A stretch of DNA of 32,000 bases, taken from assembly GCF_000008385.1 (NCBI RefSeq), contig NC_006833.1:210001-242000 (forward strand), written 5' to 3'. The notes beneath the pieces were generated by a model that worked only from the letters and a program-made list of their open reading frames with translations, ran no database searches and was not told the origin of the DNA. This DNA comes from Wolbachia endosymbiont strain TRS of Brugia malayi. GTDB taxonomy: Bacteria; Pseudomonadota; Alphaproteobacteria; Rickettsiales; Anaplasmataceae. Position numbers and translations under genes: made by a program. Each line of letters opens with the position of its first letter. Within the stretch, counting starts at the first letter, position 1. Positions 1-30,944 of this stretch are shown here, one piece after another.

Positions 1-262
1 AAGTATTAAGTAAGCCTCTTCTGATTTTTGAATACCTAGGAGCAAACGCACAGTTATATACAACCCAACATCATTTTTACAAATTTTATAATATTGCCTA
101 TAGGCTCACCAAGATTGTGCTGCCAGAGAAGCTTTATCTCATTTTTGTTCAAATTCTCTTTAAATGCTCCAAACAAGATTAGGTCACTTATTTATCGACT
201 ATATTAAAGACACTCGCATAACCAGAAAATACGCCGTTTTCTCCTATATTTTTTATTAACAA
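1..262 (-). pseudogene. HK97-family phage prohead protease, partial and frameshifted (runs off the left edge)
   Basis: The minus-strand translation gives ...LLIKNIGENGVFSGYASVFNIVDK*, then in other frames GAFKENLNKNEIKLLWQHNLGEPIGNIIKFVK and DVGLYITVRLLLGIQKSEEAYLIL. The GYASvFn and LLwqHn..ePIG motifs are typical of prohead proteases. At least one in-frame stop and two frame changes are visible. Confidence 0.65.
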
Positions 263-504
263 TGGGATGAACAGAGAAATTTCTTATCCTCATAAAGCCT
301 CCTTGTAGATTATGCTATTGGGGATTTTATTTGAAGTAACTTGCAATATACTGCGAAACAACCTTATTATATACAGTACTCTAAAAGAGGGAAGCATTTT
401 TAATTACAAAATAGAAACTATGGAAGCAACAAAGCCATCCCAACGTCACACAAACAACTTATGAGCATTTGTGATTTGATAAGCTAAAGATAGCTCACAG
501 AAGT

Positions 505-810
505 ACAAAAAATTACTTGATAAACCTTGCTAATTTCCATAGTACTGAAGGTATTCAGTTATCTTCAATCTATGCAGATTAAATGACAAAGTATCACGTA
601 GTTAGCGTCTTATGTTTAATTTTTTGTACTATATGTACTCTTATGTCTTTACAACATCTCTGGGGGGGTTTTTACCTATATAAGCTAGAACGTGCTTTAT
701 AAAGCATTTAAGACAGTATAGTGCGCCAATTTATAGGATTAGAGAGTAAACACTATCTGCCAGGGAATATCTTTTACCTTTTTTCTATTTAATAAATTTC
801 TTGCTACTTG
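505..810 (+). repeat. Large modular non-coding repeat, copy A (head plus one tail module)
   Basis: Aligns by eye along its whole length with 29675-29975 (roughly four fifths identical), and with 6845-7160 and the reverse complement of 18040-18385. Shared blocks are AAATTACTTGAyAAAC, GCAGATTAAA, ATGTTTAATTTTTGCACTATATGyAC..TATGTCTT, TTTTTACCTATATAAGyTGAA and CTTTTGCCTTTTTT..AAATTTCTT. Confidence 0.85.
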
Positions 811-915
811 TTAGCGGGGTCTAGAGATACCGCAGATGAGTTGCGCCAACGTCTCCGCTGGAATGACATAAGAAGGAGGCTACTTGAACGATAAGAAAGG
901 AGTACTGGAATGACA
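809..915. repeat. Short palindromic mini-elements (a TGTTAGC..GAGATACCGC unit followed by CGCTGGAATGACA / GTACTGGAATGACA units)
   Basis: 809-833 TGTTAGCGGGGTCTAGAGATACCGC matches 7334-7361 and the reverse complement of 15014-15042. The region 860-914 resembles the elements inserted in addA (GCACTGGGATGATAGGAAAGGA). Confidence 0.7.
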
Positions 916-1324
916 ATAAATTTCTTCGAAAAAAAGTTACTTGAAATGGCAACTGTATAAAACTGTTACTTCCAGCCTATCTCTATCAGTTTTTTTCTCC
1001 TTTTGCTTCTTCCACTTTAGAGTTGTAGTACTTCATCTGTAACACAATCATCTTGAATCTAAGAGTTCTTTAACTCCTTTAAACAGCATAAAGGGAATAC
1101 CTATACATACTTATAACTAAAGCACTGGTTACCGCTATTTTTGTTATAGCTATAACTGCTGTTAAATAGCTATATCGATAGTAGTTTCCACCACTAAACT
1201 TAATAATATCTTGATTATCATATACCATAATAAAAAAGTCAAATCCATACGCTAAGGTTGTAGCTTTACTAAATACTAAAAAACAGTCACAATGAAGTAA
1301 GCAAACATTTACAAATTAAATTTA

Positions 1325-2596
1325 GTGTGCAATCAACAAACAAGGGTGTTGATATCAACAATTCTCTGTAGAATCGCAATATGGTATGATCACATGCTCT
1401 TTATTGATCTGGTTAACATAATCAGTAGAGAGTTTTGTTCTGCAAAAGATGTCTACTACAACATACTGCAATTGTTTGGAATTGCAGGGCTGGGTGCTAT
1501 GGTAAGGCCACTTGGCGCATCTGTATTTGGTCACATTGGCGATAGATATGGAAGGAAGATGGCATTAACAATTGCTATTTTGCTAATATCAATCCCGTCT
1601 AGTCTCGTTGCATTTATTCCAGGCTATAGTCGAGTAGGTATAACCTCTACTATATTGCTTTTTGCAATCCATGTAACACAAGGAATTGCACTAGGCGCCG
1701 AACAAGGAGGAAGTTCTGTTTATCTCATAGAGCATTTATCCAATAAGAAAAAACTAGGAATGTTTTTTGGGATAATAAGTTTTGGTCGCTCCATTGGTGT
1801 CCTGCTTTTTGTAATGATAGTGATCATATGCAAAAAAATCACTGATTTTAACGCATGGGGCTGGAGAATGCCGTTTACTTTTTCGGCCATTTGGGGATTA
1901 ATGAGTGCATATAGTATATACACATTAGGAGAAACTCCGGCATATGAAAAAAATCGAGAACAAAGAAATTTGCCTAATTTACCAATAATAGAGCTTGTAA
2001 AGCGCTATAAGAGAGCTCTGATACTTGCCGTTTTAATATCCGTACCTGTTAATGTTGCTGTTGGATTTACCATATTTCTTCGAACAATTGCAAAAGAAAT
2101 AGTGCAAGTTGAGATGTATGTAACAACATATGTCAATGAAATTGTGTTGATTATAACCAGTATATTAATACCGATATCTTCAATAGCGCTCGGAATGTTA
2201 GCTGATAGAGTAGGGAAAGAGCGCATTGCAATCTTATTTATAATAATTACGATAATACTGTGTTGTCCTATGTTATCTATTGCATATTACTATAAAAGTT
2301 ACCTTATAATTATGTTGAGTGTAATGGCTCTCTCTATAATAGAAAGGGGTATCAATCCTATAGGAATAGTTGCATCTGAACTTTTCCCCCCCAATGTTAG
2401 ATTTAGTGGAGTGAGTTTATCACGCAATATTTCTTTTGCCTTGCATGGTGGATTTACCCCCATGATATGCACTTGGCTTACTATAACGTTCCCTCAAATA
2501 AATTTTGTTGCTGGGCTTTATATAATCTTCTGCTTATTGATCAGTTTGATAGCAATACTGCAAATAAAATCACAAGATAAAAATTTTGATTGGTAA
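1325..2596 (+). CDS. MFS transporter, ProP-like (proline/betaine-type) permease
   Basis: 423-aa ORF with many hydrophobic segments. It carries the MFS loop motif GHIGDRYGRKMAL and an N-terminal ..IWYDHMLF.. region that resembles the EWYDF motif of the ProP family. The start is GTG. Confidence 0.75.
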   Translation: MCNQQTRVLISTILCRIAIWYDHMLFIDLVNIISREFCSAKDVYYNILQLFGIAGLGAMVRPLGASVFGHIGDRYGRKMALTIAILLISIPSSLVAFIPGYSRVGITSTILLFAIHVTQGIALGAEQGGSSVYLIEHLSNKKKLGMFFGIISFGRSIGVLLFVMIVIICKKITDFNAWGWRMPFTFSAIWGLMSAYSIYTLGETPAYEKNREQRNLPNLPIIELVKRYKRALILAVLISVPVNVAVGFTIFLRTIAKEIVQVEMYVTTYVNEIVLIITSILIPISSIALGMLADRVGKERIAILFIIITIILCCPMLSIAYYYKSYLIIMLSVMALSIIERGINPIGIVASELFPPNVRFSGVSLSRNISFALHGGFTPMICTWLTITFPQINFVAGLYIIFCLLISLIAILQIKSQDKNFDW

Positions 2597-2729
2597 AAAT
2601 CCCGGTATAAGCCACACACATTAAGTTAAGCTTAAAATTGTAAGTTAAAAAATATAGTTGAATATTTGGAAAAAATAGTGTATTACTATTAATACCATTT
2701 AAGTTAATTTATTATAGCACTTTCTAAAT

Positions 2730-3577
2730 TCCTTACCAAAATTGGACCTGACTTTCAAGAAGATCTTTGGCACGGAAGAAATAAGAATATTCTTGTCCAT
2801 TTTTGAGCGATGTTTTAGGGTATACTGAAGTTAATACTATGCAAGAAATAGAATTCATCAGCGTCATTATGAATTCTAAATTTGCTTCTGAGAAACAAAG
2901 CATGGTTGGTGTTCTCTGCAAGGATTCTGTTGGTAATAAGTTTGTGGTTGAAGTGGAGCTCACTCGTGACAAGGACTTTGAAAAACGTATTCAATATTAC
3001 GTTGCCAAAGCTTCTCAAGGCAATCTGGTGGATATCATAATTTACACAAAAGATTTTCTTTATTACAATATCAAATTGTACTTTATTTCCCGATGAGTCC
3101 AATTATATATCTAGCCATACCATAAGAGACGATGAAACTAATGAGCATGATTTACAAGATTTTCAATTCGTATTCATTGAACTATCTAAATTTCCTAAAG
3201 GTAAAGTAGACCAATTAACAAGCATAGTAGAACGCTGGTGTTTCTTTATTTAAGTATGCAGAAGAAACAACAGATAAAAATTTAAAGAAGATAGCAGGAG
3301 AAGTATTAATAATAAATTAAGCATATGATGAGTTAAACAAGTTTCACTGGGATGAAAAGGACCTAAACAGCGTATGAAGAAAGAATAATGGATCTGTACA
3401 AAGAGGAAGCTATCCTTGAACAGAAACTTGGAAGGTATAGAAGAAGGAAAAATTGAAGTAGCAAAGGCAATGCTGGCTGATAATGTTGACACCAACACTA
3501 TTGTCAAGTTTACTGGTCTTTCCATTAGTGAAATTGAAAGGATTGCAGGATTAGAAGACGCTCATCAATTAACCTAA
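2730..3577 (+). pseudogene. Rpn-family recombination-promoting nuclease / PD-(D/E)XK putative transposase, fragmented
   Basis: Pieces lie in different frames: LDLTFKKIFGTEE, ILVHF.SDVLGYTEVNTMQEIEFI...VGVLCKDSVGNKFVVEVELTRDKDFEKRIQYYVAKA, DDETNEHDLQDFQFVFIELSKFPKGKVDQLTSIVERWCFF, and the C-terminal EEGKIEVAKAMLADNVDTNTIVKFTGLSISEIERIAGLEDAHQLT*. There are multiple stops and frameshifts. Confidence 0.8.
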
Positions 3578-3626
3578 CGCGGGCAGAATGACAGAATGCT
3601 ATTAGGTGTATGGTTATACAAGAAAT

Positions 3627-4076
3627 CTAATAATAATTGGTAGAGTCCCTCAATTTCTCAAAAAAATCTTTTAACAAAAAAGAGCACTCTGTTTCTAATA
3701 CCCCACCATAAACTTCAGGTACGTGGCTGCAAAATTGAAATATTTTAGCACCATTTTCAATTCCTCCACCTTTTGAATTATAGGCTCCAAAGTACAATCG
3801 TTTAATTCTTGCAAAGGAAATAGCTTGAGCACACATCGGACATGGCTCTAATGTTACGTACATGTCAGCATTACAAAGTACTGACGTTGAAAGCAATTCG
3901 CATGCTTGTCTGATCACTAACATCTCTGCATGTGCAGTTGGATCATTGGATATATTATGTGCAAAAGAAATGATATTGTCTCCACTAACTATCACAGCTC
4001 CTATGGGAATCTCATCATTTTTTTTGGCAAGCTTAGCTTGCTCTACGGCAAACTCCATATATTGACACTTAAACAC
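3627..4076 (-). CDS. tadA: tRNA-specific adenosine deaminase (CMP/dCMP deaminase fold)
   Basis: 149 aa with the zinc-binding motifs HAEMLVI and PCPMCAQA. The size and its position after pyrG fit TadA. Confidence 0.85.
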   Translation of the reverse strand: MFKCQYMEFAVEQAKLAKKNDEIPIGAVIVSGDNIISFAHNISNDPTAHAEMLVIRQACELLSTSVLCNADMYVTLEPCPMCAQAISFARIKRLYFGAYNSKGGGIENGAKIFQFCSHVPEVYGGVLETECSFLLKDFFEKLRDSTNYY

Positions 4077-4085
4077 TTTCCCTTG

Positions 4086-5708
4086 TTAACCTTCTGTTTT
4101 TTTAACTTTATTAACTACTGCCTTAATGAATGATACAAAGAGAGGATGAGGAGAAAATGGCTTAGATTGGAACTCTGGGTGAAATTGAACACCAATAAAC
4201 CATGGATGGTTTTCTAACTCCACTGCTTCTATATATGTTCCATCTTCTGACATGCCACTGCATATCAGTCCATTCTTTTCTAAATCATCTTTATAATCTA
4301 AATTAATTATGTATCTATGCCTGTGTCTTTCTGAAATAATAGTATCGCTATATGCACCCGCCATTTTAGAATTTGGACTTATATTACATTTGTATGCCCC
4401 AAGTCTCATGGTTCCACCAAGATCAACGTTTTTATCACCAGCTAGCTTAATGATTGGGTGTTTACAAGTATAAAACTCTTCAGAATGTACATCTTTAAAC
4501 TTAATAACGTTGCGAGCAAATTCAATAACCGCAAGCTGCATACCAAGGCATATTCCAAAAAATGGGATATTATTTGTGCGAGCGTAACTTATCGCTAACA
4601 TTTTACCTTCTATTCCATCGTCACCAAAACCCCCTGGAACAAGAATTGCATGAGAATTCTTTAGTTTATCCCCCATAAACTTTTCATTTATAGGTTTTCC
4701 GCTCTTCTCTCTTGAGTTAACCCAATTTATCTTTACTTCGATTCTATTACTAATTGCACTATGACTTAATGCCTCAACTAGTGACTTATACGTATCAGGA
4801 AATTCAGTGTATTTCCCTACTATAGATACAGTAACTTCCTGCATTGGGTGCCTCATAGAATGCACTATTTGATTCCACCCAACCAGACTTGGTTTTGGTT
4901 TACTTAAATGAAAATGTTCCAAAACTTGTGTACCAAGTCCACATTGATTATATAAGACAGGTAGCTCATATATATGACTTACATCAGGAGCGGATATTAC
5001 ATTAGATAAAGAAACATTACAAAGATTGGCTATTTTCCCTCTCTGATTATCAGAAATTTCTTTTTCACTACGACATAATATAATATCTGGCTGTAGCCCT
5101 ACAAAATTTAGCTCTCGAACTGAATGCTGTGTTGGTTTTGTCTTTAATTCTTGCGCTACAGCAAGATATGGCACCAAGGTTAAGTGAATAAGAATAACTC
5201 TTTGTTTTCCGAGTTTATAGCTAATTTGGCGTATGGCTTCCAAAAATGGTTGACTTTCGATATCACCTACAGTCCCGCCAATTTCACATATCACAAAATC
5301 TAAGCCTTCCGTACCATTAAAAATAAATGACTTGATTAAATCCGTTACATGAGGAATGACTTGTACAGTTTTGCCCAGGTAATCACCACGTCTTTCCTTT
5401 TTCAATAACTCATGATACATCTTACCAGTTGTTATATTGTCGTCTTTAGTTGCTTTAATTCCAGTAAAACGCTCATAATGCCCAAGATCCAAATCAGTTT
5501 CGGCACCATCTTCGGTAACAAATACCTCTCCATGCTGGGTTGGGCTCATTGTTCCAGGATCAATATTTAGATATGGATCAAGTTTTCTAATGCGAACTTT
5601 AAAGCCGTGAGCTTGAAGAAGTGCACCTACACTTGAAGCGACTAAACCTTTGCCAAGTGATGAAACAACCCCACCTGTTACAAAAATAAATTTAGCTTCT
5701 TTCATCAA
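4086..5708 (-). CDS. pyrG: CTP synthase
   Basis: 540 aa. The N-terminus [16 protein letters not shown], the glutamine amidotransferase motif GICLGMQ and the C-terminal [10 protein letters not shown] are diagnostic of PyrG. Confidence 0.97.
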
Positions 5709-6070
5709 TTCTCAAAGGGAACAGAAGTAGATTCATTTTCTTGTTGTTTTTCCAATATAATTTTCTCTGCTATCGATTTTTTATGTACATCTTTTGAACA
5801 CAATCCTGACAATAGTAATGTATTCATAATAAACAATCCAGCAACTATGGCTGTTATTTTGTTAAGCGGATTCGCAGAAGATTTTACTGGAATTATTGAA
5901 TTGAATCCTTGCTGCGAATTGCTAAAGCCGCTTAGTGAGCTACTTCCTGGTGGCTGCAAGAGTACTAAAATTACTAATATAACAACCAATATTATTTGAA
6001 ATACACTTAATACCATTATTAACATTATAAATAGGGTTGAAAATAAAAATTCTAGGAACATAAAGCACAT
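5705..6070 (-). CDS. secG: Preprotein translocase subunit SecG (the true start is probably internal, near 6025)
   Basis: Small membrane protein with a ...[18 protein letters not shown].. core (the SecG LLQxGKG-like region) and a second TM segment. Its stop overlaps the pyrG start by 4 nt. The first ~15 codons look like an ORF-track extension. Confidence 0.75.
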
Positions 6071-6092
6071 AAGTCAAGTTCTTATACGCACC

Positions 6093-6126
6093 TGTCATTC
6101 AAGTAGCCAGCATTGTGCGCTGGAAG
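6093..6126. repeat. Short palindromic element (TGTCATTC..GCGCTGGAAG)
   Basis: TGTCATTCAAGTAGCCAGCATTGTGCGCTGGAAG resembles TGTCATTCCAGCGTGTGGCGCTGGAATC at 10620-10647. Confidence 0.6.
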
Positions 6127-6181
6127 AAATTTATTAAATATTTTACTTATAGATCTAATTTCTTATTATAAGAGATACGCA

Positions 6182-6770
6182 ATGAGCGATTTATTAATGG
6201 TTAAAGATTATAAAAAGGGGCGCAAAAAGCGCCTGAGAGAGAAAATTGTTTTAGATAATAGACAATCACTACTCGACTACTATGAAGTTTTAGAGTACAT
6301 TTTGTACTCAACATACAGTAGAATTGACGTAAAGCAGGTAGCAAAGAGTTTGATAGAAAATTTTGGCAGTTTAAAAAGGATCTGCCTATAATCAATAATT
6401 AGAAAAAACTGCTTGATTACTTAAGAATAAGTATAGGAAGCCTCAATGAGAAAAACTTTCATGTCATTTACACGAATAAAAAATACCACCTAATAGCGGA
6501 AGACCTGCAAAACATTAGTACAATAGATCAAACTTCTCTCTATGTCAAAGATATTATCAAGCGTGTTCTTTTGATTGGTTCAACATCCATAGTAATATCC
6601 CACAACCATTCAAGTGGAAATACACAACCTTCAAGTAGAATATATCCCTCACTAGGTAGCTAGCAGAAGCTTGCAAAAGCGTAAGAATAGAACTAATAGA
6701 CCACATGTTGTTACATTCAGTAGCTACTTTAATTTCAAGGAAAATAGGTTATTGTGAAAAACTTTTATAG
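6182..6770 (+). pseudogene. radC: DNA repair protein RadC (JAB/MPN domain), fragmented
   Basis: The N-terminus MSDLLMVKDYKKGRKKRLREKI...LLDYYEVLEYILY...VKQVAKSLIENFGSLKRI is intact up to a stop at 6391. The JAB core reappears in other frames (IVISHNHSSGNTQPS; ELIDHMLLHSVATLISRKIGYCEKLL*) and is interrupted by several stops. Confidence 0.8.
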
Positions 6771-6844
6771 CTACAGTAGCTTAATTATCGTCATTCGCTA
6801 TCAGTAGTGTAAACTCTTCAAATAACATAAAATGAAGTAGATGG

Positions 6845-7275
6845 CTGTAAAATTACTTGACAAACTTTGCCAGCTCTCTTACCATGGTAGTGGAGCTATT
6901 TTATATGGCTTTCCAAGCTTGTGTAGATTAAAATGACAAGAAAGTTTTGTATTTGGTGTATTGTTGTCTAATTTTTCGCACTATATGCACTGTATGTCTT
7001 TATAAAATTCTAGGTTTTTAGTTATACAAGCTGAAACGCGCTTATAAAGTGTTTAAGGCATTACCCAACGCCAAATTTTTAAAATAAAGAATTAGTGATT
7101 AGCTACTACAGGGGTTTCTTGTCTTTTTTTTCTGCTTGGCAAGTTTCTTAAATATTTAAGCCCCAATTAGTTGTTTTGAAAAGCAGCTAAATTGTAGCGT
7201 TTAAGACTTAAAAACGCCAATAATGAATAATGACCGGGGTTTCTTTTGCCTTTTTTCTGAATGGCTAAAAATTCA
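6845..7275 (+). repeat. Large modular non-coding repeat, copy B (head plus two tail modules)
   Basis: Has the same block order as copies A, C and D. The tail motif GGGGTTTCTTGTCTTTTTTTT (about 7122-7142) is repeated as GGGGTTTCTTTTGCCTTTTTT (about 7236-7256), each preceded by a GCGTTTAAG..AACGCC unit. Confidence 0.85.
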
Positions 7276-7302
7276 ATCTACTTCGTTATGGAACTTCTTG
7301 CC

Positions 7303-8133: not shown

Positions 8134-11100
8134 TCAAAAGTCAGATTGAATGGTTAAATCTTCCACCCAAATAACCATGCACTCTACCTGCTTGTTTGGA
8201 CATATCTCTTGTACTAAGGTTTTATAGATCAACATCTGTTTTTTTATTTCATTTAATGAGGAAACAGAAACATTACGGTGTGATTTATAGTCAATTATAA
8301 TTGCTTTATCCTGCGTTATGCATAGCTTATCTAATCGTACTAATACCGGTTTGCCATTGATTGTTCCACTCAGTGTAATTTCTGACTTACCATCTAAGTC
8401 AAACAGGTAATCATATTTTTCATTAAAGGCTAATATTTTTCTGTAAATTTCATCCTTATTTTTCCTGATGTTTATATTATCAAGATATTTTCCTATCCAA
8501 TTTTTTCTCCTGTCTTTCTCTATCTTAGGCATATACTGCAATATGCTATGAATTATTAAGCCTCTTGTGTAGCCATCTGTCATCCAGGTGTTCCTTTTTT
8601 TGTCATCCCAGTGTGTGACACTGGAATCTAGTGGAGAAAAAGAATGGATCCCAGTATCAAAGCACTGGGGTGATAGGAGAGGATACTGGGATGGTGAAGG
8701 AGAGTGCTGGAACAAAATTGATAAATTCGGTGGGGGCAAAACAGCAGGAATGTTAAAATAATCACGTTTTTTATAAATGTAAGGATAGTTTGCATTTACA
8801 CATAATACCTCAACTTTTTCTTTAAATATTTGGTGTAACTCCATGTATTTCTTCTCATACGGCTCTCCATATTTAGTGATTATATCATACCAAGAGCCCT
8901 TTTGTACTGGCTCTTTACCTAAAATGTATAACTCATCCTCAGCACGCGTGAGTGCCACGTATAACAAACGCAAATACTCGTTATAATCCTCCAGTTTTTT
9001 TTCCCTTTTCACTTGGTCACAATAAGCGTTGTTGTTTTTTCCACATAAAAATGGTGCTCCCATCGCATCAAGAACAATGCTTTCACTGTTTTTTGGTACT
9101 GTATTCGTATCAACCAAAAATACTATGGGAGCTTGCAGACCTTTTGATTTATGAATTGTCATTATTCGCACAGCATTGCGTTCTGATTGCATATCATTTT
9201 TAATCTCTGGGTTATTTTCCTTTATCCACTGAACAAACGCTTGAAGAGATGGGTTTTCAAATTGTAACACAAGGTTCATAAATTCATCTAGGACCTCAAA
9301 GCATTCAAGACCTAGCCTTGCAGCGAATTTCTTCTTACCTGTACGAAGTATATGTGTGAATAACGTAAGAGGTGATTCTATGTGAGATAAGTTAATGAGA
9401 TCGTTTAACTTACTATAGATATCTTCAGAATAATTCTGGAGTCTTTCCCATAACGACTGTTCTTTACGATCATATGCAATATTAAATAAATCATCTTCAG
9501 TGAAATTAAATAGTGGCGATTTTAAAGCATTTGCAAGAGCCAAATCATTTGTTGGAAGAAGTAAAAATTCAGTCAAAGCTATCAAGTCTTGCACAGCTAT
9601 GTAGTCCATAATTCTAAAATAGTCCCGTCCTACAACTGGTATATTTGCTTTTTTAAGTTCACTTATTACGTAATCAACTAGCATATTTCGCTGTCGTACC
9701 AGAATCATAATGTCTCTTGGTTCTATATGGCGATTTTTAGCGACTAAAATTCGCCCCTCATTTAACCAGTTGTGAATTTTGTGAGCTATTGCCTGGGCAA
9801 GCAATCGATCTGTTATTATATAATCTTTCCTATGCATCAAATGAATTTGTAAAGCTTGCTGTTCTTCCTCTTTACATCTTGGCAACAACGGCCAGATTTC
9901 AACGTATCCCTGATCGTTTTCTCTATATGGAATATGTTTTATTTCACTATCAACAAAAGATATCTCTTCACGGAAGTTGTTAAATAACCTATCTACAAGT
10001 GTTAAAGTTTCCGGAGTTGAGCGAAATGACTTTTCAAGCTGACATGATATCCAATCTTTGCCACCAGATTTTGTATGAAAGTATTGTTGCATGCAGTTGA
10101 ATAGGTGAGGATTTGCCCCCTGAAATCTGTAAATGGATTGTTTTACATCACCAACAACAAACAAGGTTCGTTTTTCATCATTACGGATAAAAAATTCATC
10201 GCAGAGATTTGCTATAATTTTCCATTGACTGATGCTATTATCTTGTGCCTCATCAACAAGAATGTGATCTATTTTTTGATCTAAGTTAAACAATACCCAA
10301 TTTTTATAATCTGGATTGCTGAGAAGATTTGTTGCTAAATCGATTATATCATTATAGTCAAGCAGTGCATTCTTTGACTTTTCACTATTATATAAATCAA
10401 TATATACTTTAAATATATCCAGAAAACTACTGGTTCTTTTGAATATTTGATAAGAGTTTATATCTCTTACATGAGTAAATACTGCATTCTGAATATTTTC
10501 TATTACTTGCTCTGCACCTGGAAATTTCTCCAAAGTACTCTTCGTTATAATGGATGATATGCTTTTTTTCTCGCACGATTCTGACTTTAAAAACACTTTG
10601 ACTAAGTTTTCTATACTGATGTCATTCCAGCGTGTGGCGCTGGAATCTAATTTTTGAATCCTAGTATCAGCTACTTGGATGAAAGAGGAAGATGTAAGAT
10701 CAAGCATCTTGCTATAATTCCGATCTCGTTTACTGCCTTTACTTAATATTTCGGCTAATCTTTCTATTTGCTCAGTCGCTTCACTCTGTAAACCATGAAT
10801 TTCATCTGGAGCACTCAGTTTACCTTTGACATATTCTAGATTGTTTGCTGACACAGATCTTTTTATGCACAAAGTATAAAGCAAATCGCGTAACTTATTT
10901 TCATCAACTTCAGCTGCAATAAATTTTATACTATCTTGCACAGCTTCATTATGAAGTAATTTATCAAATACAATGGAGTGTAATTCCTTACATTCGCTCA
11001 GCGTACAATTTGGAACAATGCCAGCTTCTGCAGGAAAGCTAGAAATTAACTTATAACAAAAGGCATGTACAGTCTGTATAGTTAAATCAAGATTTTCCAG

Positions 11101-11493
11101 TTCAGAGAAAAGCCTCCTTGCTTGGATTAAATAATGATTAAATACTTCACTATTTTTTGTCTGCGGCCATCTAGATCTCAGTGTCAAGCACTGGGATGAT
11201 AGGAAAGGATGAGATGGCGGATAGTGGTGCTGAAGCAACAGTAAAGAGAGGTCTAGCTGTTCTAAAGATGCGATTAGTTCGTTATCTGAACAAACTGCCC
11301 ACTTACTGAGTATATTATGAATGCGACTTTCCATCTCATTTGCTGCAGCATTGGTAAATGTTAAGCAGAAAATATTCCTTTTATTTTCTAATAAAAGTCT
11401 TAATACTCTATCTATTAAGATTTTCGTTTTGCCTGTACCAGCGGATGCATTCACCCATACAGAAAAATTAGGATTTATGATATCTGGTTTCAT
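8134..11493 (-). CDS. addA: Double-strand break repair helicase-nuclease AddA (UvrD/RecB-like), intact ORF
   Basis: 1119 aa containing Walker A ASAGTGKT, TFTNAAANEM, TVHAFC, VDEAQDNS, GDVKQSIYRFQGA, TIHKSKGLQ, YVALTRAEDEL and a C-terminal PD-(D/E)XK motif IIDYKSH. Confidence 0.9.
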   Translation of the reverse strand: MKPDIINPNFSVWVNASAGTGKTKILIDRVLRLLLENKRNIFCLTFTNAAANEMESRIHNILSKWAVCSDNELIASLEQLDLSLLLLQHHYPPSHPFLSSQCLTLRSRWPQTKNSEVFNHYLIQARRLFSELENLDLTIQTVHAFCYKLISSFPAEAGIVPNCTLSECKELHSIVFDKLLHNEAVQDSIKFIAAEVDENKLRDLLYTLCIKRSVSANNLEYVKGKLSAPDEIHGLQSEATEQIERLAEILSKGSKRDRNYSKMLDLTSSSFIQVADTRIQKLDSSATRWNDISIENLVKVFLKSESCEKKSISSIITKSTLEKFPGAEQVIENIQNAVFTHVRDINSYQIFKRTSSFLDIFKVYIDLYNSEKSKNALLDYNDIIDLATNLLSNPDYKNWVLFNLDQKIDHILVDEAQDNSISQWKIIANLCDEFFIRNDEKRTLFVVGDVKQSIYRFQGANPHLFNCMQQYFHTKSGGKDWISCQLEKSFRSTPETLTLVDRLFNNFREEISFVDSEIKHIPYRENDQGYVEIWPLLPRCKEEEQQALQIHLMHRKDYIITDRLLAQAIAHKIHNWLNEGRILVAKNRHIEPRDIMILVRQRNMLVDYVISELKKANIPVVGRDYFRIMDYIAVQDLIALTEFLLLPTNDLALANALKSPLFNFTEDDLFNIAYDRKEQSLWERLQNYSEDIYSKLNDLINLSHIESPLTLFTHILRTGKKKFAARLGLECFEVLDEFMNLVLQFENPSLQAFVQWIKENNPEIKNDMQSERNAVRIMTIHKSKGLQAPIVFLVDTNTVPKNSESIVLDAMGAPFLCGKNNNAYCDQVKREKKLEDYNEYLRLLYVALTRAEDELYILGKEPVQKGSWYDIITKYGEPYEKKYMELHQIFKEKVEVLCVNANYPYIYKKRDYFNIPAVLPPPNLSILFQHSPSPSQYPLLSPQCFDTGIHSFSPLDSSVTHWDDKKRNTWMTDGYTRGLIIHSILQYMPKIEKDRRKNWIGKYLDNINIRKNKDEIYRKILAFNEKYDYLFDLDGKSEITLSGTINGKPVLVRLDKLCITQDKAIIIDYKSHRNVSVSSLNEIKKQMLIYKTLVQEICPNKQVECMVIWVEDLTIQSDF
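8579..8710. repeat. Composite palindromic element inserted in frame in addA (site 3)
   Basis: TGTCATCCAGGTG...TGTCATCCCAGTGTGTGACACTGGAATCTA...GGATCCCAGTATCAAAGCACTGGGGTGATAGGAGAGGATACTGGGATGG. It is read on the minus strand as ..HSPSPSQYPLLSPQCFDTGIHSFSPLDSSVTHWDDKKRNTWMTDG.. Confidence 0.8.
10620..10685. repeat. Palindromic element inserted in frame in addA (site 2)
   Basis: TGTCATTCCAGCGTGTGGCGCTGGAATCTAATTTTTGAATCCTAGTATCAGCTACTTGGATGAAAG. It contains the hairpin CCAGCG/CGCTGG and encodes ..IQKLDSSATRWNDISI.. Confidence 0.75.
11165..11232. repeat. Palindromic element inserted in frame in addA (site 1)
   Basis: AGATCTCAGTGTCAAGCACTGGGATGATAGGAAAGGATGAGATGGCGGATAGTGGTGCTG is near-identical in layout to 8647-8710. 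It encodes ..LLLLQHHYPPSHPFLSSQCLTLRSRWP.. between helicase motifs Ia and TVHAFC. Confidence 0.8.
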
Positions 11494-17904: not shown

Positions 17905-18040
17905 AATCTACCATTTCCATCATCCAAGTGGCTGAACAGGAAAACGCATTGGTATAATACCTTATTTCTGTTATCCTAGTTTCCTTCTCCTGTTGTCCAT
18001 ACCCACTTCTTATCATGCTAGTGTGTGACACTATTTTCGT
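17905..18040. repeat. Degenerate copy of the GTCAT..CAGTGTGTGACACT palindromic element family
   Basis: CATCATCCAAGTGG...GTTATCCTAGTTTCCTTCTCC...TATCATGCTAGTGTGTGACACTA parallels 8579-8710 (TGTCATCCAGGTG / TGTCATCCCAGTGTGTGACACTGG). Confidence 0.6.
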
Positions 18041-18385
18041 TTGCTCCTAAATTGCTTCAGCTACAAATTTTAAGAAATTTACTAAGTAAAAAAAGGCAAG
18101 AAAGCCCGTTAGTAACTAGTTATTTATATTAACTTTATAAATTGGCATTTTTTACTGTTTCAAATGCTTTAACAAGCGCACTTCAGCTTATATTAGGTAA
18201 AAACCTTAAAAATTTATAAAGACATACAGTGTATATAGTGCAAAAATTAAACATGGAACGCTAAGTACATCGAGTTTTTTATTATTTTATCTGCACAGAC
18301 TGAAGCTAAATAAATATCTTTGATGTTACGACAAGGGGGCTGGCGTAGTTTGTTAAGTAAATTTTCGCTTCTATCAGCTACCATG
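18040..18385 (-). repeat. Large modular non-coding repeat, copy C (inverted orientation, one tail module)
   Basis: The reverse complement reads AAATTTACTTAACAAAC..GCAGATAAAAT..ATGTTTAATTTTTGCACTATATACACTGTATGTCTTTATAAA..TTTTTACCTAATATAAGCTGAAGTGCGCTTGTTAAAGCATTTGAAAC..GGGCTTTCTTGCCTTTTTTT..AAATTTCTTAAAATTTGTAGCTGAAGC. Confidence 0.85.
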
Positions 18386-18434: not shown

Positions 18435-19604
18435 TTAGCTATACGCAAGAACTTTATTTTTGATAATTTCTTTTGCAATAGCACGGCTTTCAAGATCAAT
18501 GTTTATTATATCGGATAATGAGTTAATGTCAGTGTAACTATCAAAATTCTCTACTGTTAACTTTACTACTTTTATTATCTCCAAAAAGTCAATTCGTGAT
18601 TTTAAAAATTTATCAACAGCTACCTCATTTGCAGCATTAAGTACTATGCTATTTGTGTGTGGAGAGGAGGAATTTAACACTTCCATACTAAGCTTTAGCG
18701 CAGGAAAGCGCTTATGGTCCGGTTCTTGAAAGGTCAATTTCTGCTTTGTTAAATCTAATTTATAACTTAAAGCTGACCTTTCTGGCCAAGACAGAGCATA
18801 TGAAATGGGAATTGCCATATCAGCCTCTGCAAGTACAGCAAAATTAAAACCATCCTTATAAATTACAATTCCATGTATTATCGATTCGGGATGCACTATT
18901 GCTTCAATTCTGTTTGGGCTAATATTAAATAAATTATGTGCTTCTATTATCTCCAGCGCTTTGTTCATCATAGTTGCACTATCAACTGAGATTTTCTTTC
19001 CCATGTTCCAAGTAGGATGACTAAGTGCTTGACCTACTGTAACGTTTCTTAATTGCTCAAGGCTATAATTCAAGAATGACCCACCAGAAGCAGTGAGTAT
19101 AATCTTTTCTACACATTTATTGCCATTCTGCAAAACTTGAAAAATTGCATTGTGTTCAGAGTCAATAGGAACTATCTGTACGTTTTTTTCTTCGGTTTTC
19201 TTAAGTAATAGTTTTCCACCACAAACAATACTTTCTTTGTTTGCTAGTGCAATGACTTTAGTACCACTTTCTATGACGTGCATTACTGGCTCAAGGCCTG
19301 CAATACCAACTACTGCAACAACTGAGAGATCAACGGGCAGAGAAGCAACATTCATTAGACCCTCAGTACCAACTTCTACTTTGATGCCCGTACCAAGTAG
19401 ACTTTCTTTTAAATCTTTATAAAACCTTTTATTAGAGATAGCAACATACCTTGCATTTAGCAGTTTTGCTTGGCATGCCAGTAGAGCAAAATTCGAACAG
19501 GTACTGAGTGCTTCTACTTGATATTCTTCTTTTCTCTTTAATAGTAAATCTACAGTCTTTTTTCCAATACTTCCTGTCGATCCTAAAACTGAAATCTTTT
19601 TCAC
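18435..19604 (-). CDS. dxr: 1-deoxy-D-xylulose 5-phosphate reductoisomerase (MEP pathway)
   Basis: 389 aa with the N-terminus ISVLGSTGSIGKKT, plus LANKESIV, PIDSEHNAIFQ and LSHPTWNMGKKISVDSATMMNK. Confidence 0.95.
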   Translation of the reverse strand: MKKISVLGSTGSIGKKTVDLLLKRKEEYQVEALSTCSNFALLACQAKLLNARYVAISNKRFYKDLKESLLGTGIKVEVGTEGLMNVASLPVDLSVVAVVGIAGLEPVMHVIESGTKVIALANKESIVCGGKLLLKKTEEKNVQIVPIDSEHNAIFQVLQNGNKCVEKIILTASGGSFLNYSLEQLRNVTVGQALSHPTWNMGKKISVDSATMMNKALEIIEAHNLFNISPNRIEAIVHPESIIHGIVIYKDGFNFAVLAEADMAIPISYALSWPERSALSYKLDLTKQKLTFQEPDHKRFPALKLSMEVLNSSSPHTNSIVLNAANEVAVDKFLKSRIDFLEIIKVVKLTVENFDSYTDINSLSDIINIDLESRAIAKEIIKNKVLAYS

Positions 19605-19702
19605 TAAAACAAACTCGCGTTAATTATAACAAATTAAGGAAAGGAGAAGTGTCCCTTCTCAACTATTTACAGTTATTCAGCAATTTCTAAGATTAAATTC
19701 AT

Positions 19703-27932: not shown

Positions 27933-28241
27933 ATGTTTAGTATAGGTCTTTCAGAAATTTTAGTTGTAGTTTTAGTTAGTATAATTGTTCTTGATAAAAA
28001 TAAGGTACCTGTATTCATTGACCTTATTAAGAATATATATAGGTATCTTACGATCATAAAATCAAAAGCTAGAAGATTATTGAAAGATGCTGGAATTGAA
28101 GAGTTATATAAAGAGTATAACACCGAGAAAGTAAATTACATAATTGGTAAAGATGGTAAACTTTATCCTACTTACAATATAGATAATACGCCTAAAGATA
28201 ATGACAGCGAGGATTCTAGTAGTAGACGACGTGCCATCTAA
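27933..28241 (+). CDS. tatB: Tat (twin-arginine) translocase TatA/B-family subunit, TatB-like and divergent
   Basis: 102 aa. The N-terminus MFSIGLSEILVVVLVSIIVL is followed by an amphipathic basic helix, which is the TatA/B architecture. The usual GP hinge is replaced by DK. The 3' end overlaps pleD by 41 nt. Confidence 0.6.
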   Translation: MFSIGLSEILVVVLVSIIVLDKNKVPVFIDLIKNIYRYLTIIKSKARRLLKDAGIEELYKEYNTEKVNYIIGKDGKLYPTYNIDNTPKDNDSEDSSSRRRAI

Positions 28242-29577
28242 TGTTAAGCTTTTAGAAGCTCGACTAAAAGCAGAGTACTACACGGTTATTGTAGCTCATG
28301 ATAGTGAAGAAGCTATAGATTTAGTGGCAAAGCAACAGCCTGATATTATATTACTCGATATCATGATGCCAAAAATAAACGGCTTTAAAGTTTGTAAGAA
28401 CTTAAAGAGCACCCCCCTGACAACCCATATTCCAATAATTATGGTGACTGCGCTGCATGACACTCACGATAGAGTGCAAGGCATTAACGCCGGCGCAGAT
28501 GATTTTCTAACTAAACCAATAGATGAAACTGCCTTATCTGCGAGAATTAAGTCTCTCACACGCCTAAAGATGGTTATAGATGAACTACGTTTAAGAGGAG
28601 AAACTAATGCTGAGATTTGTGGGGTAGCAGGAAGCAGTATTATGGATTATTCTAATCAGATCTTTGACTCTAATATACTTGTTGTAGATGAGGATATCTT
28701 TCAAGCAGAGCAGATACATAATGTACTAAAGCAACGCTTTAAGTTAATTAACATACTGAACGATCCAATGGAGGCATTGAAGGTTGGTATTGAGGATAAC
28801 TATGATCTAATTATCTCTGACATGCAATTTTCAGAAACTGATGGCCTACGCTTATGTTCTGAGTTTCGTAGTAAAGTAGAAACACGCTATACACCAATTC
28901 TAATCCTTTCTGAAGATTATAATAAAAACAACTTAGTAAAAGCACTTGACGTAGGAGCTAATGATTACTTAACAGTGCCCCTGGATGAAAGTGAATTAAT
29001 AGCAAGAGTCAATTTACAAGTGAAACGCAAGAGATATCAAGATGCTTTGAGAATGAATCTATTCAACAATGCAGAAATGTCTATAAAGGATCCACTTACT
29101 AACTGTTACAACAGAAGATATTTTGATACACACTTAAGAAACATTATTAAAGACTCTGTAGAAAAAAATAGAAGATTATCTCTTATGATACTAGATATAG
29201 ACTATTTTAAGATAGTAAATGACGATTTTGGACATAGTGCCGGAGATGAACTTTTAAAGCAGATACAGAAGAGAATTTCTGAAAATATCAGAGTGACAGA
29301 CTTGTTAGCTAGGTTTGGCGGTGAGGAATTTGTTGTTGTAATGCCAGATACCAATATATCAGATGCATACATTGTTGCAGAAAGGATACGCGAAATTATT
29401 GCTACAGAACCTTTTATACTCTCGGATAAAAACACAACACACAATGTGACTGTAAGCATTGGGGTTGTAGAAATGCAAGAATCTGATCTTGATAATATTG
29501 AAAAATTTATAGTACGTGCTGATAGATATTTATATAAAGCAAAAAATAGTGGCAGAAATAGGGTGGTTACTAGCTAA
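28201..29577 (+). CDS. pleD: PleD-type response regulator diguanylate cyclase (REC-REC-GGDEF)
   Basis: 458 aa starting MTARILVVDD. REC1 has DD, D in ILLDIMMP, T in VTAL and K in LTKP. REC2 is degenerate. The GGDEF domain has the active site RFGGEEF, with an RxxD I-site (RVTD) five residues upstream. Confidence 0.93.
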   Translation: MTARILVVDDVPSNVKLLEARLKAEYYTVIVAHDSEEAIDLVAKQQPDIILLDIMMPKINGFKVCKNLKSTPLTTHIPIIMVTALHDTHDRVQGINAGADDFLTKPIDETALSARIKSLTRLKMVIDELRLRGETNAEICGVAGSSIMDYSNQIFDSNILVVDEDIFQAEQIHNVLKQRFKLINILNDPMEALKVGIEDNYDLIISDMQFSETDGLRLCSEFRSKVETRYTPILILSEDYNKNNLVKALDVGANDYLTVPLDESELIARVNLQVKRKRYQDALRMNLFNNAEMSIKDPLTNCYNRRYFDTHLRNIIKDSVEKNRRLSLMILDIDYFKIVNDDFGHSAGDELLKQIQKRISENIRVTDLLARFGGEEFVVVMPDTNISDAYIVAERIREIIATEPFILSDKNTTHNVTVSIGVVEMQESDLDNIEKFIVRADRYLYKAKNSGRNRVVTS

Positions 29578-29674
29578 CTAGGAGTGCGATGTCATAGAAT
29601 TACCATTAACGAAATTTACAATAGGCTTCTTGCAAACCATACAATTTTTGCCTGGCCATCATTTAGGTAAGCCG

Positions 29675-30145
29675 AAAAAACTACTTGACAAACCTCGCTA
29701 GCCCCCTTATCCCGATACTGGAGGTATTAAGTTACCTTCAATCTGTGCAGATTAAAATAATAAAGTGTTATATAGTTAGCATCTTATGTTTAATTTTTTG
29801 CACTATATGTACCTTATGTCTTCACAATATTTCTAATTTTTTACCTATATAAGTTGAAACTCGCTTATAAAGCGTTTAGGACAGTATAATATACTAATTT
29901 GCAGGATTAGAGAGTAAATACTATCACCATAATATATCTTTTGCCTTTTTTTTGCCTAGTAAATTTCTAAAACATTTATGACTAAAGGTTAGTTGCAATA
30001 AAAAACAACTAAGTCGCGATTACTAAGTATTTAAAACATAAAAAAACGCTAGTGTTTTTAAATAGATATTAACTAGGGCTTCTTTTGTCTTTTTCTTACT
30101 TGGTGGATTTCTTAAATATTTGTAGCTGAAGCGATTCAAGAGCAC
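29675..30145 (+). repeat. Large modular non-coding repeat, copy D (head plus two tail modules)
   Basis: Closest to copy A through about 29975. A second tail module follows (..AAAAACGCTAGTGTTTTT..GGGCTTCTTTTGTCTTTTTCTTACTTGGTGGATTTCTTAAATATTTGTAGCTGAAGCG), and its end matches the end of copy C. Confidence 0.85.
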
Positions 30146-30458
30146 GCGACTTAATGTCAAGCCTTTAGTTCAAGTTATGCAAGAGACCTATTTATAATGG
30201 AGATTAAATTATGGAAGTACAGAGTTACAAACGACATAAATCCATAACAGGAGCAGAAGTTGCTGTAGGTATTAGCTCTTGGTTATATTAAATTTCATTG
30301 AGAAAGATAGGCATCTTATAAAAGCTTACAACAAAAATTTCATATAGTTATTACTATAGATAGCTATCTTATAAATAAGTAAAAAAAGGTTATGAAAAAT
30401 AATAGACTATTATAAAATCTTATGGTAAGGTATATATTTATTTATATAAGAGAGCAAT

Positions 30459-30944
30459 ATGAGCAACTCTAATGATAGCGATGATAAGAAGCATTCTGAT
30501 TCTTTAGGCTACAAAGTAGGATAAAGAGTGAAATATTGGAGCGAGGATATACTCAGAAGGATTTAGCAAAAAAGATCGGGGTAAAATACTGGAATAATAA
30601 TTCAACATGAGAAAGGAAAGCGCAGAATACCAATTGAAAGGTTATATGACATAGCAGAGATGTTGTCAGTAAGTATTATGGATCTAATCCCTATACAAAG
30701 AGGGCCAAAAAATTGGCTTAAAGACAAAGGAGAAGAAATATTAAATCTAGTAAGAAATTATAAAAAGATTAGTGATCAAAAATTACGTAAGATATTTTAT
30801 TTGTTAATTAAATCTGCCCAGCTTAGTAAAAAAAGTAGTAGAAAAGTAGAGATAATAGAAATAGCCAAGAATCTGTTCAAAGCAGGAATTTCTATTAACA
30901 TTATCTCCCAAATAACTGGCTTATCAACTGATAGAATTGCATGA
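30459..30944 (+). pseudogene. XRE-family helix-turn-helix regulator, frameshifted; the C-terminal 94-codon ORF is still open
   Basis: MSNSNDSDDKKHSDSLGYKVG* is followed in other frames by ILERGYTQKDLAKKIGVKYWNN and IQHEKGKRRIPIERLYDIAEMLSVSIMDLIP..., the canonical HTH_3 pattern split over three frames. ORF 30660-30944 continues to ..IEIAKNLFKAGISINIISQITGLSTDRIA*. Confidence 0.75.

Follow-up and report, generated by a model that had tools for sequence, protein, structure and literature searches.

The window analysed here is the whole 32,000-nt stretch covering positions 210,001 to 242,000 (forward strand) of contig NC_006833.1, from the Wolbachia endosymbiont strain TRS of Brugia malayi (wBm), and the feature under study is an intergenic repeat that it carries in four full copies, named A to D. 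The window has about 34% G+C and contains pyrG, an addA-like helicase gene, ispE, dapB, pstB, dxr, clpB, a gene for NAD-glutamate dehydrogenase, pleD and secF. The copies, each about 310-440 nt long and separated from one another by 6-12 kb, were located using a repeat finder, a four-way alignment and profile searches (a profile hidden Markov model, HMM, of the family, run with nhmmer). All four were recovered by the HMM at the places given in the original prediction (E 9e-84 to 3e-102), and no further copy was found by it in the 32-kb window, apart from the extra tail modules of B and D. The copies and their parts are as follows, in window coordinates.

500-908, forward strand: copy A (nhmmer 275 bits, E 9e-84)
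517-522, forward strand: -35 box TTGATA of the decayed promoter of A, with a 5-nt deletion in the spacer
769-803, forward strand: single tail of A
about 811-908, forward strand: degenerate palindrome modules of A
6847-7269 by the HMM, and through tail 2 to 7276, forward strand: copy B (nhmmer 336 bits, E 3e-102)
6857-6862, forward strand: -35 box TTGACA of B, followed by a 17-nt spacer
6880-6885, forward strand: -10 box TACCAT of B
6892, forward strand: predicted start G of B
7111-7152, forward strand: tail 1 of B
7167-7190, forward strand: linker hairpin of B
7236-7276, forward strand: tail 2 of B
18370-17975, reverse strand: copy C (nhmmer 276 bits, E 5e-84)
18356-18351, reverse strand: -35 box TTAACA of C
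18333-18328, reverse strand: -10 box TGTCGT of C
18321, reverse strand: start-equivalent base of C
18107-18069, reverse strand: single tail of C
18007-18032: palindromic unit following the tail of C
29671-30114 by the HMM, and 29619-30152 as annotated with the upstream module, forward strand: copy D (nhmmer 316 bits, E 3e-96)
29619-29642, forward strand: optional upstream module of D
29685-29690, forward strand: -35 box TTGACA of D, with an A-tract
29691-29707, forward strand: spacer of D
29708-29713, forward strand: degenerate -10 box TATCCC of D
29720, forward strand: start-equivalent G of D
29720-29739, forward strand: 5' hairpin of D
29936-29972, forward strand: tail 1 of D
29989-30012, forward strand: linker hairpin of D
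30076-30116, forward strand: tail 2 of D

The same ordered blocks were found in all four copies, as had been predicted, and the tail coordinates bear out that the tail is present twice in B and D and once in A and C; from the start of one tail to the start of the next, the distance is about 125 nt in B and about 140 nt in D. In copy A the 17-nt promoter spacing is lost because of the 5-nt deletion in the spacer. Copy C begins 67 nt past the stop codon of dxr, the PleD-encoding gene that precedes D occupies window 28201-29577, and the similarity of D to C continues to about 30149. For D, originally delimited at 29675-30145, the location stands but the start is arguably about 50 nt earlier, with the recurrent module at 29619-29642. 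The view that D is the best preserved copy is not sustained, as B scores above it (336 vs 316 bits) and a -10 box of the TAnnnT type occurs only in B. Directly upstream of copy B, a remnant of a radC pseudogene (HNHSSG motif) was recognized at window ~6440-6700 on the forward strand (open reading frame, ORF, 6571-6663), and the annotation of the filarial strain wBp has a 65-aa RadC fragment at the orthologous place.

In a larger alignment, the canonical order of the modules is an optional upstream module, an A-tract, a promoter, a body, tail 1, a linker, tail 2 and clusters of GC-rich palindromes. The canonical alignment includes both the linker and the second tail, so that B and D, with their two tails, represent the standard form; A and C have neither, and their degenerate palindromes follow directly. 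The optional upstream module (about 25-45 nt, consensus about CAATAGACTTCTTGCATAAC) stands directly after the stop codon of the preceding gene. The head reads CTTGACA, a 17-nt spacer, TATCAT, 6 nt and GAAG, and is followed by an AU-rich body of about 270 nt and then by tail 1, GGGGTTTCTTTTGCCTTTTTTTCTGCTTAGTAAATTTCTTAA. The linker, of about 90 nt, combines a hairpin, TTAGTTGC-N8-GCAGCTAA, with a partial duplicate of the 3' body (GCGTTTAAGAC...AACGCCAAT). The left edge of the element is not sharp, with two alternative left flanks in addition to the optional module. In a second subfamily the promoter head and the T-tract tail are unchanged and the body is largely different (L044 of wBp, 19363-19691; metagenome locus L025, 8956-8630); this subfamily is common to the filarial strain and to the insect-type strain of the metagenome, and underlines the modularity of the element.

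A short upstream module (CAATAGRCTTCTTGCAWAMC...) was seen between the upstream stop codon and the head in roughly half of the copies, for example at window 29619-29642, at ~9905-9930 in locus L049 and at ~10035-10060 in locus L050. Palindromic units of the form TCATCCCAGTGT...CACTGGGATG also occur at window 8603-8629 and 11173-11199, in frame inside the addA-like helicase ORF (8134-11493, reverse strand), in a manner resembling that of Rickettsia palindromic elements; further units lie at window 10616-10641 and 18007-18032, and none would be expected by chance. The length of AddA ranges from 1073 to 1195 aa among Wolbachia.

The head has the layout of a promoter, and the original prediction had already singled out TTGACA as a -35-like box. 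The arrangement TTGACA, 17 nt, TATCAT, 6 nt, G was found across about 40 copies from many Wolbachia. Among 41 heads, the -35 is TTGACA in 35 and the -10 is TATCAT, TATTAT or TACCAT in 33, and the spacer, widely variable in sequence, is 17 nt long in nearly all. The -10 varies mainly at its positions 3 and 4, as is expected of a TAnnnT element, and mean column identity is 0.97 for the -35, 0.92 for the -10, 0.80 for the spacer and 0.68 for the discriminator.

Start sites mapped in wMel give this layout an experimental basis. For RACE (rapid amplification of cDNA ends), Woolfit et al. (2015, PMC4349823) picked 13 strongly transcribed wMel intergenic regions (IGR or IG), and five 5'-RACE inserts are printed in their Supplementary Table C. 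Two of these inserts, IGR-1047 (ispH/WD1275) and IGR-1021 (WD1243/WD1244), align over their full length to the repeat family. After the adapter prefix common to all five clones (GCGCGAATTCCTGTAGAA...TAGAAGAAA), the two family clones open with GAAGCTATTG... and GAAGGCATTC... (GAAGC/GAAGG), and the G at which they start lies 7 nt downstream of the -10 in every canonical copy, the true wMel copies included. Since both clones begin at that G, the family head is a working sigma-70 promoter, and TTGACA is its -35. Because two paralogs share the same start at a textbook promoter distance, a primary start is much likelier than a processing site. The primer for the IGR-1047 clone lay downstream of tail 1, which shows that transcripts extend across the first T-tract.

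Both regions were dropped as small RNA (sRNA) candidates by the authors, IGR-1021 on account of co-transcription and IGR-1047 because no specific primers could be designed; neither the kinship of the two regions nor their membership of a repeat is remarked in that paper (PMC4349823). The sRNAs that it names, ncrwmel01 and ncrwmel02, are unrelated to the repeat in sequence. By class membership (PMC368164, Table S1), the repeat is contained in five of the 13 highly transcribed regions (IG-151, IG-292, IG-921, IG-1021 and IG-1047), of which only IG-1021 and IG-1047 are sequence-verified members.

The family is distributed across Wolbachia. It was found in wMel, wRi, wBp, wLs, wDimm, the Wolbachia of Paracimex and other complete Wolbachia genomes, and in insect and termite metagenomes, with nhmmer E-values as low as 1e-130 (wMel, wBp, wDimm, other complete Wolbachia genomes and metagenome contigs). 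Copies of wMel and of two other complete genomes scored 347-429 bits, and a contig of a wMel-like draft assembly 416 bits; matches in wLs and in the Wolbachia of Paracimex were weaker or partial. Four copies lie within 21 kb of wBp, copies are present in wDimm, wLs holds eroded pieces, and in wRi a copy consisting of the head only lies between ruvA and rnhB. A strict pattern scan using one genome per species returned three loci, namely a full copy in a Rickettsiales metagenome-assembled genome, an extra-tail copy in the Wolbachia of Paracimex and an unrelated locus, the pattern being too strict. A looser pattern gave 32 metagenome contigs with about 45 heads, and more copies were obtained from the neighbourhoods of orthologous genes and of spurious ORFs called on the repeat. 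Many metagenome contigs terminate inside the repeat, which is the signature of a high-copy, assembly-breaking repeat. In phage and plasmid collections, no plasmid match was found and the sole phage-collection match was the head-only copy of wRi; as this is chromosomal DNA deposited in a WO phage record, a phage or plasmid origin was rejected.

Spurious gene calls on repeat copies are sporadic "hypothetical proteins" of 41-110 aa, some of them labelled "putative membrane protein". One such spurious ORF (P0130, 97 aa, 87% identity) lies on a 4.06-Mb contig labelled Rickettsia endosymbiont of Ceutorhynchus assimilis, which may reflect mislabelling, co-assembly or transferred Wolbachia DNA.

This DNA is already catalogued in wMel, where repeat classes 11, 4, 29 and others of Wu et al. 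(2004; PMC368164, Table S1) are the same DNA family. The IGR-1047 copy falls under class 11, the most abundant class (89 fragments, grouped here into about 30 loci), and the copies of wMel AE017196 at 290.2 kb and 293.4-293.8 kb fall under classes 4/54 and 29/10. Using the family HMM built from window and metagenome copies, the IGR-1047 RACE sequence and the fetched wMel loci scored 347-429 bits; as one family is spread over several classes, the exact-repeat finder evidently split it. That catalogue gives coordinates only, with no anatomy, promoter, transcript or cross-strain comparison (PMC368164). Regions with variable-number tandem repeats (VNTR) also touch the family (Riegler 2012, PMC3287509). 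By coordinates, a segment of class 11 lies in the intergenic region of VNTR-105, and the VNTR-141 region and a verified copy of the family are both covered by class 29; by description, the VNTR-period hairpin (23 nt, 9-bp stem) matches ATACCGCGAATGAATCGCGGTAT after tail 2 in wMel copies. Tandem module duplication is common to the VNTR-141 and VNTR-105 loci and to the repeat. Identity of the tail module (period of about 125-140 nt) with the VNTR-141 period was considered and not established, as the VNTR hairpin matches a module past tail 2.

A search of known RNA families placed the repeat in none of them. At gathering thresholds, Rfam 15 gave no match in the whole window, and at E up to 10 only chance-level matches were returned for copy D and for a canonical wMel copy; the Rfam search that had been suggested with the original prediction thus yielded no family match for the repeat. 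The only Rfam match near a copy is WsnRNA46 (RF02625), at 23 bits against a gathering threshold of 65 (E 0.05, both strands), in palindromic units downstream of the element (L048 10602-10689; wMel AE017196, ~290.84 kb), which suggests that the published Wolbachia "sRNA 46" model resembles the palindromic repeat downstream of this wMel copy. A search for tRNA and tmRNA genes found none. In the literature, including a full-text search with conserved strings, no description of the unit, be it as an element with a promoter or as a family of RNAs, was found, and the repeat is not described in the wBm genome paper, the wOo transcriptome paper or the Cappable-seq paper. Earlier work had thus listed the DNA among the wMel repeats and had mapped two copies by RACE without recognizing them; the novelty lies in seeing in it a single, promoter-driven, non-coding, Wolbachia-wide unit with a defined anatomy.

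Dispersed, non-coding intergenic repeats that lie beside gene ends and act as recombination substrates are known as Correia elements in Neisseria, as mosaics of bacterial interspersed mosaic elements (BIME) and repetitive extragenic palindromes (REP) in E. coli, and as BOX elements in pneumococci. BOX (A-Bn-C) and BIME are modular with a variable number of internal modules, and Correia elements can carry functional promoters. The Wolbachia repeat is alike in kind only, being modular, promoter-bearing and intergenic, and a mosaic association with GC-rich palindromes was seen. It has no sequence similarity to any of these, and differs from them in its greater length (300-450 nt), in the lack of terminal inverted repeats and in a full consensus sigma-70 promoter at one end that fires inward.

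The position of the copies relative to genes was scored for 35 of them. In 22, the upstream gene is on the same strand and its stop codon precedes the start of the copy by 17-230 nt (mostly less than 110 nt), dxr with C and pleD with D being examples; in the other 13, the upstream gene is divergent and back-to-back with the copy. Downstream, convergent and co-oriented neighbours are about equally frequent, and they lie farther off; this random orientation and larger distance argue against a dedicated promoter for the next gene. The position fits a stand-alone unit lodged in intergenic DNA. Flanking genes common to the window and metagenome copies, which would point to positional orthology, were looked for and none was found.

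The four copies are old. Over their full length they are 58-68% identical to one another, whereas identity is 81-82% between D or A and a wMel copy, and 84% between B and a metagenome copy; as each wBm copy is nearer to copies of other supergroups than to its wBm paralogs, the lineages are older than the supergroup split. Orthologs of B (98.8% identical) and D (96.8% identical) are in place in wBp, and that of C lies after dxr in wBp and, eroded, in wLs. Sequence comparison gives no sign of recent transposition in wBm, where the copies do not appear to be recent insertions.

Most of the wBm copies have also decayed. A plausible -10 box (TAnnnT) is found in B only, the promoters of the other three being decayed, and the TTAACA/TGTCGT promoter of C is identical in its wBp ortholog. 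Against a background of 99.0-99.3% identity between wBm and wBp over the compared regions, the differences are distributed as follows.

D (window 29669-30104): 14 of 436 positions, 3.2%
C (window 18201-18385): 5 of 185 positions, 2.7%
B: 5 of 423 positions, 1.2%
third codon positions of clpB, gdh, pleD and addA: about 1.1%
other long intergenic stretches: 1.2-1.8%

The divergence of C and D is at or above the neutral rate, which indicates no constraint on these two copies. Their excess, about three times the rate at third codon positions, could be due to relaxed constraint with extra mutation or to gene conversion among copies. Two of the five changes in B are within the -10 box, where TACCAT becomes TACAGT, still a TAnnnT box. 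The lost promoter consensus in three of the four copies, together with the rates of C and D, indicates that the wBm copies are mostly relics, although copy B may still be transcribed in wBm.

Copies of the repeat were also found at breaks of synteny. The colinearity of wBm and wBp (99.3% over 11.9 kb) stops at window 30104 (L044 11903), inside tail 2 of D, and past the break wBp has an ankyrin gene where wBm has a wmk-like fragment and secF. The gene after pleD differs among wBm, wBp, wLs and wDimm, and a copy or a remnant of the repeat, in either orientation, lies in each of these gaps; the gene after addA differs in wLs, which is without B. This agrees with an earlier remark in the literature that repeats lie at the breaks of rearrangements between wMel and wBm. 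The loci examined support a passive role of the repeat as dispersed homology for rearrangement. Of the recombination or packaging element that had been offered as one of two readings, the coincidence with breakpoints therefore survives in passive form, and packaging found no support.

Just downstream of copy D, window 30505-30944 (ORF 30660-30944, forward strand) holds the wmk-like fragment, a piece of a helix-turn-helix regulator of WO phage. It matches NCBIfam NF047948 (E 8e-28, profile positions 57-149 of 300), and its DNA is 67-75% identical to "transcriptional regulator" genes of WO phage; the wBm genome has been described as prophage-free. A Logan contig (SRR5099220_13441, L005) encodes a PleD identical to that of wBm, follows D for only the first 134 model positions (3145-3278) and then carries an ankyrin fragment as well as recO. 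Its origin is one of three: a chimera that the assembly formed across the repeat, a genuine rearrangement, or Wolbachia DNA inserted in a nuclear genome.

Secondary structure was modelled by hand as a 5' hairpin from +1 to +21, a long-range helix TTGGCGT/ACGCCAA, a hairpin AGGT-TTTT-ACCT, and the helices AAGC/GCTT and AAACGC/GCGTTT. In the model of 7-8 helices, 87-90% of cells are paired and both sides had changed in 15 cells, where shuffles gave 7.5 +/- 2 and none of 500 reached 15; 8-9 pairs are changed on both sides, with covariation above 497-500 of 500 shuffles for a model derived from the same, related sequences. The best helix, TTGGCGT/ACGCCAA, becomes TTAGCAT/ATGCTAA in the wBp ortholog of D, and wBm D reads ATACTAA, with one mismatch. 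Compensatory changes were also seen in the small hairpin (GGGT/ACCC, GGGC/GCCC, AGAT/ATCT) and as AAATGC/GCATTT in five copies. An alternative helix, GCGTT/AACGC, received weaker support than TTGGCGT/ACGCCAA and was set aside. For a few helices the covariation is suggestive.

Explanations for the repeat were rated separately, and the ratings were not intended to sum to one. The reading that we consider probable is that the four copies belong to a transcribed, modular, ancient and largely relic intergenic repeat of Wolbachia, whose canonical copy is a self-contained non-coding transcription unit. Its RNA, probably about 300-450 nt long, is non-coding and is transcribed in fly Wolbachia. In the proposed mechanism, the A-rich stretch and sigma-70 promoter would fire at the G 7 nt past the -10, as seen by RACE in wMel and as homology suggests for wBm. 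The product would be an AU-rich RNA of at least ~290 nt that extends beyond the first T-tract tail, has only a few conserved helices and codes for no conserved protein; its 3' end would probably lie in or after tail 2 or in the GC-rich palindromes that follow. In wBm, the main present effect of the copies would be to provide dispersed homology at which the chromosome has rearranged. Between an RNA that serves the bacterium and a selfish mosaic repeat, we lean towards a transcribed repeat that may not act in trans. Of the two readings first offered, the multi-copy RNA gene family is thus the better one: its promoter and RNA are largely right, and its terminator is not. The presumed U-tract end has no stem-loop ahead of the T-tract, and the wMel IGR-1047 RACE clone runs across tail 1.

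Several results weigh against a self-contained transcription unit. A terminator scan of window 29500-30700 found no intrinsic terminator (stem-loop and U-run), and no 3' end was found. In the RACE experiments, tobacco acid pyrophosphatase (TAP) was used without a minus-TAP control (PMC4349823), and a processed 5' end is formally possible; for the wBm copies, the start sites are predicted by homology with the wMel paralogs. The IGR-1021 transcript continues into the downstream coding sequence in wMel (PMC4349823), so some copies may be a promoter and leader rather than a stand-alone RNA. Within the commonest subfamily, private substitutions affect about 3% of hexamer positions vs about 5% of spacer positions in a hand count; as the hexamers are hit about as often as the spacer, promoter conservation may reflect selection on source copies and not on every copy, and selection on source lineages only is the pattern expected of a propagating repeat. 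The wMel copies at 290 kb and 1,230 kb are almost identical, and spread or gene conversion of the repeat is ongoing or recent in wMel. The RNAalifold consensus is weak (-10.6 kcal/mol, covariation term -0.53), related sequences can outscore the shuffle control even if they have no structure, and the folding energy of single sequences is no better than that of shuffles (z -0.7, -1.2). The conserved pairing that had been proposed is accordingly borne out to a moderate degree by covariation and not by folding energy.

A first rival, which we regard as improbable though still to be reckoned with, is a functional trans-acting or host-directed family of regulatory RNAs, in which each copy is a gene for an sRNA or a long non-coding RNA under selection, and in which single-stranded conserved blocks (UAUGUCUUUAUAAAA, AACUAGCUAC and the pyrimidine-rich tail) would pair with targets. 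It differs from a transcribed repeat mainly in whether the RNA has a function. The conserved promoter and start, some compensatory changes and the presence of the repeat in several of the most transcribed wMel intergenic regions speak for it, as do subfamilies common to several supergroups at 81-84% identity in non-coding DNA and an alternative body that wBp and an insect strain have conserved, joined to the usual head and tail. However, no target, terminator or special stability was found, the copies decay at the neutral rate or faster in wBm/wBp and have eroded in wLs, the hand count shows no clear protection of the hexamers within the subfamily, and dozens of divergent copies per genome would be unusual for a trans-acting regulator.

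The continuation of the IGR-1021 transcript into a coding sequence is what would be expected if the repeat were a portable promoter-plus-leader cassette ("mobile promoter") that drives or insulates a downstream gene after rearrangements, its ~300 nt being a 5' untranslated region. A same-strand gene does lie 270-530 nt downstream in several cases (ahpC in L049, prsA in L031, window copies A and D), and copies lie at the edges of synteny blocks. Yet about half of the copies face a convergent gene or nothing near (window B and C; L047 and L048a of wMel), the unit usually abuts the upstream gene and not the downstream one, and tails and palindromes intervene before any downstream gene. This explanation is considered quite improbable.

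A non-autonomous transposon (of the type of miniature inverted-repeat transposable elements, MITE, of IS200/IS605 or of REP/BIME), mobilized by an enzyme encoded elsewhere and with an incidental promoter, is judged slightly less probable still. Dozens of dispersed copies adjoin gene ends, near-identical copies exist within wMel, and the repeat is associated with GC-rich palindromic units in a mosaic fashion; the novel multi-copy repeat families of wMel were also considered likely mobile by Wu et al. (2004, PMC368164). Terminal inverted repeats were searched by local alignment of the consensus ends against shuffles, and the left end was no more similar to the reverse complement of either tail end than expected (p 0.22, 0.58). 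The unsharp, mosaic left edge and the age of the copies leave no flanking direct repeats (target-site duplication) definable, and no transposase or conserved ORF was found in or beside the copies; no comparison with the ends of insertion sequences (IS) was made. The prediction that the family is not a classic IS or MITE is in keeping with these results. No clean empty orthologous site turned up among the strains compared: wBp has B, C and D in place, wLs has C in eroded form, and the sites that follow pleD and addA are rearranged in other strains. The wBm copies have kept their positions from at least the ancestor of wBm and wBp onwards, and C from the ancestor of supergroup D. A CRISPR (clustered regularly interspaced short palindromic repeats) array was rejected, as in the original prediction, since units of 310-440 nt with 6-12 kb between them do not fit short repeats spaced regularly at tens of bases.

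Type I toxin loci are multi-copy and intergenic and have their own promoters. A decayed gene for a small hydrophobic peptide, such as a type I toxin-like MTKKL...CLIFCTMCTLCLY of about 34 aa, is nevertheless very improbable: an ATGACAA start is common, a few copies encode hydrophobic peptides of 33-39 aa and some are annotated as "putative membrane protein", but the commonest ATG is missing in 6 of 19 copies, the other 13 give ORFs of 12-39 aa (12, 12, 12, 12, 13, 23, 23, 23, 33, 34, 35, 38 and 39 aa) in at least three frames, no Shine-Dalgarno sequence is read upstream of the ATG, the peptides have no match in Pfam or NCBIfam, and the ORF is missing from both RACE-verified wMel copies. The absence of a conserved reading frame, already noticed in the four window copies, thus extends to 19 copies, in which start, frame and length vary; a protein-coding gene was rejected on these grounds, as was a type I toxin-antitoxin locus, no small hydrophobic ORF being conserved across the 19 copies.

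Little of the non-coding transcription of Wolbachia has been charted, and analyses of RNA-seq and of start sites usually mask repeats or leave them out. If the repeat is a defined unit of promoter and RNA, a large part of the "intergenic expression" of Wolbachia would have one common source that can be modelled and counted. The head of the repeat, a native promoter both compact and strongly conserved, is of use in an organism without genetic tools, and the copies mark the sites at which the chromosomes of filarial Wolbachia have rearranged; they also account for spurious "hypothetical proteins", such as WD_0310, that gene callers have placed on them. A more speculative and rather unlikely view is that this is the largest non-coding RNA gene family of Wolbachia, with dozens of promoter-driven RNAs of 300-450 nt per insect-strain genome and at least two body subfamilies with one head and one tail in common, kept across supergroups because the RNA itself acts. 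Such an RNA might, with equally low probability, act on bacterial targets or, by analogy with reported Wolbachia small RNAs, after export to the host. If this view were true, the filarial strains would have been caught while losing the repeat.

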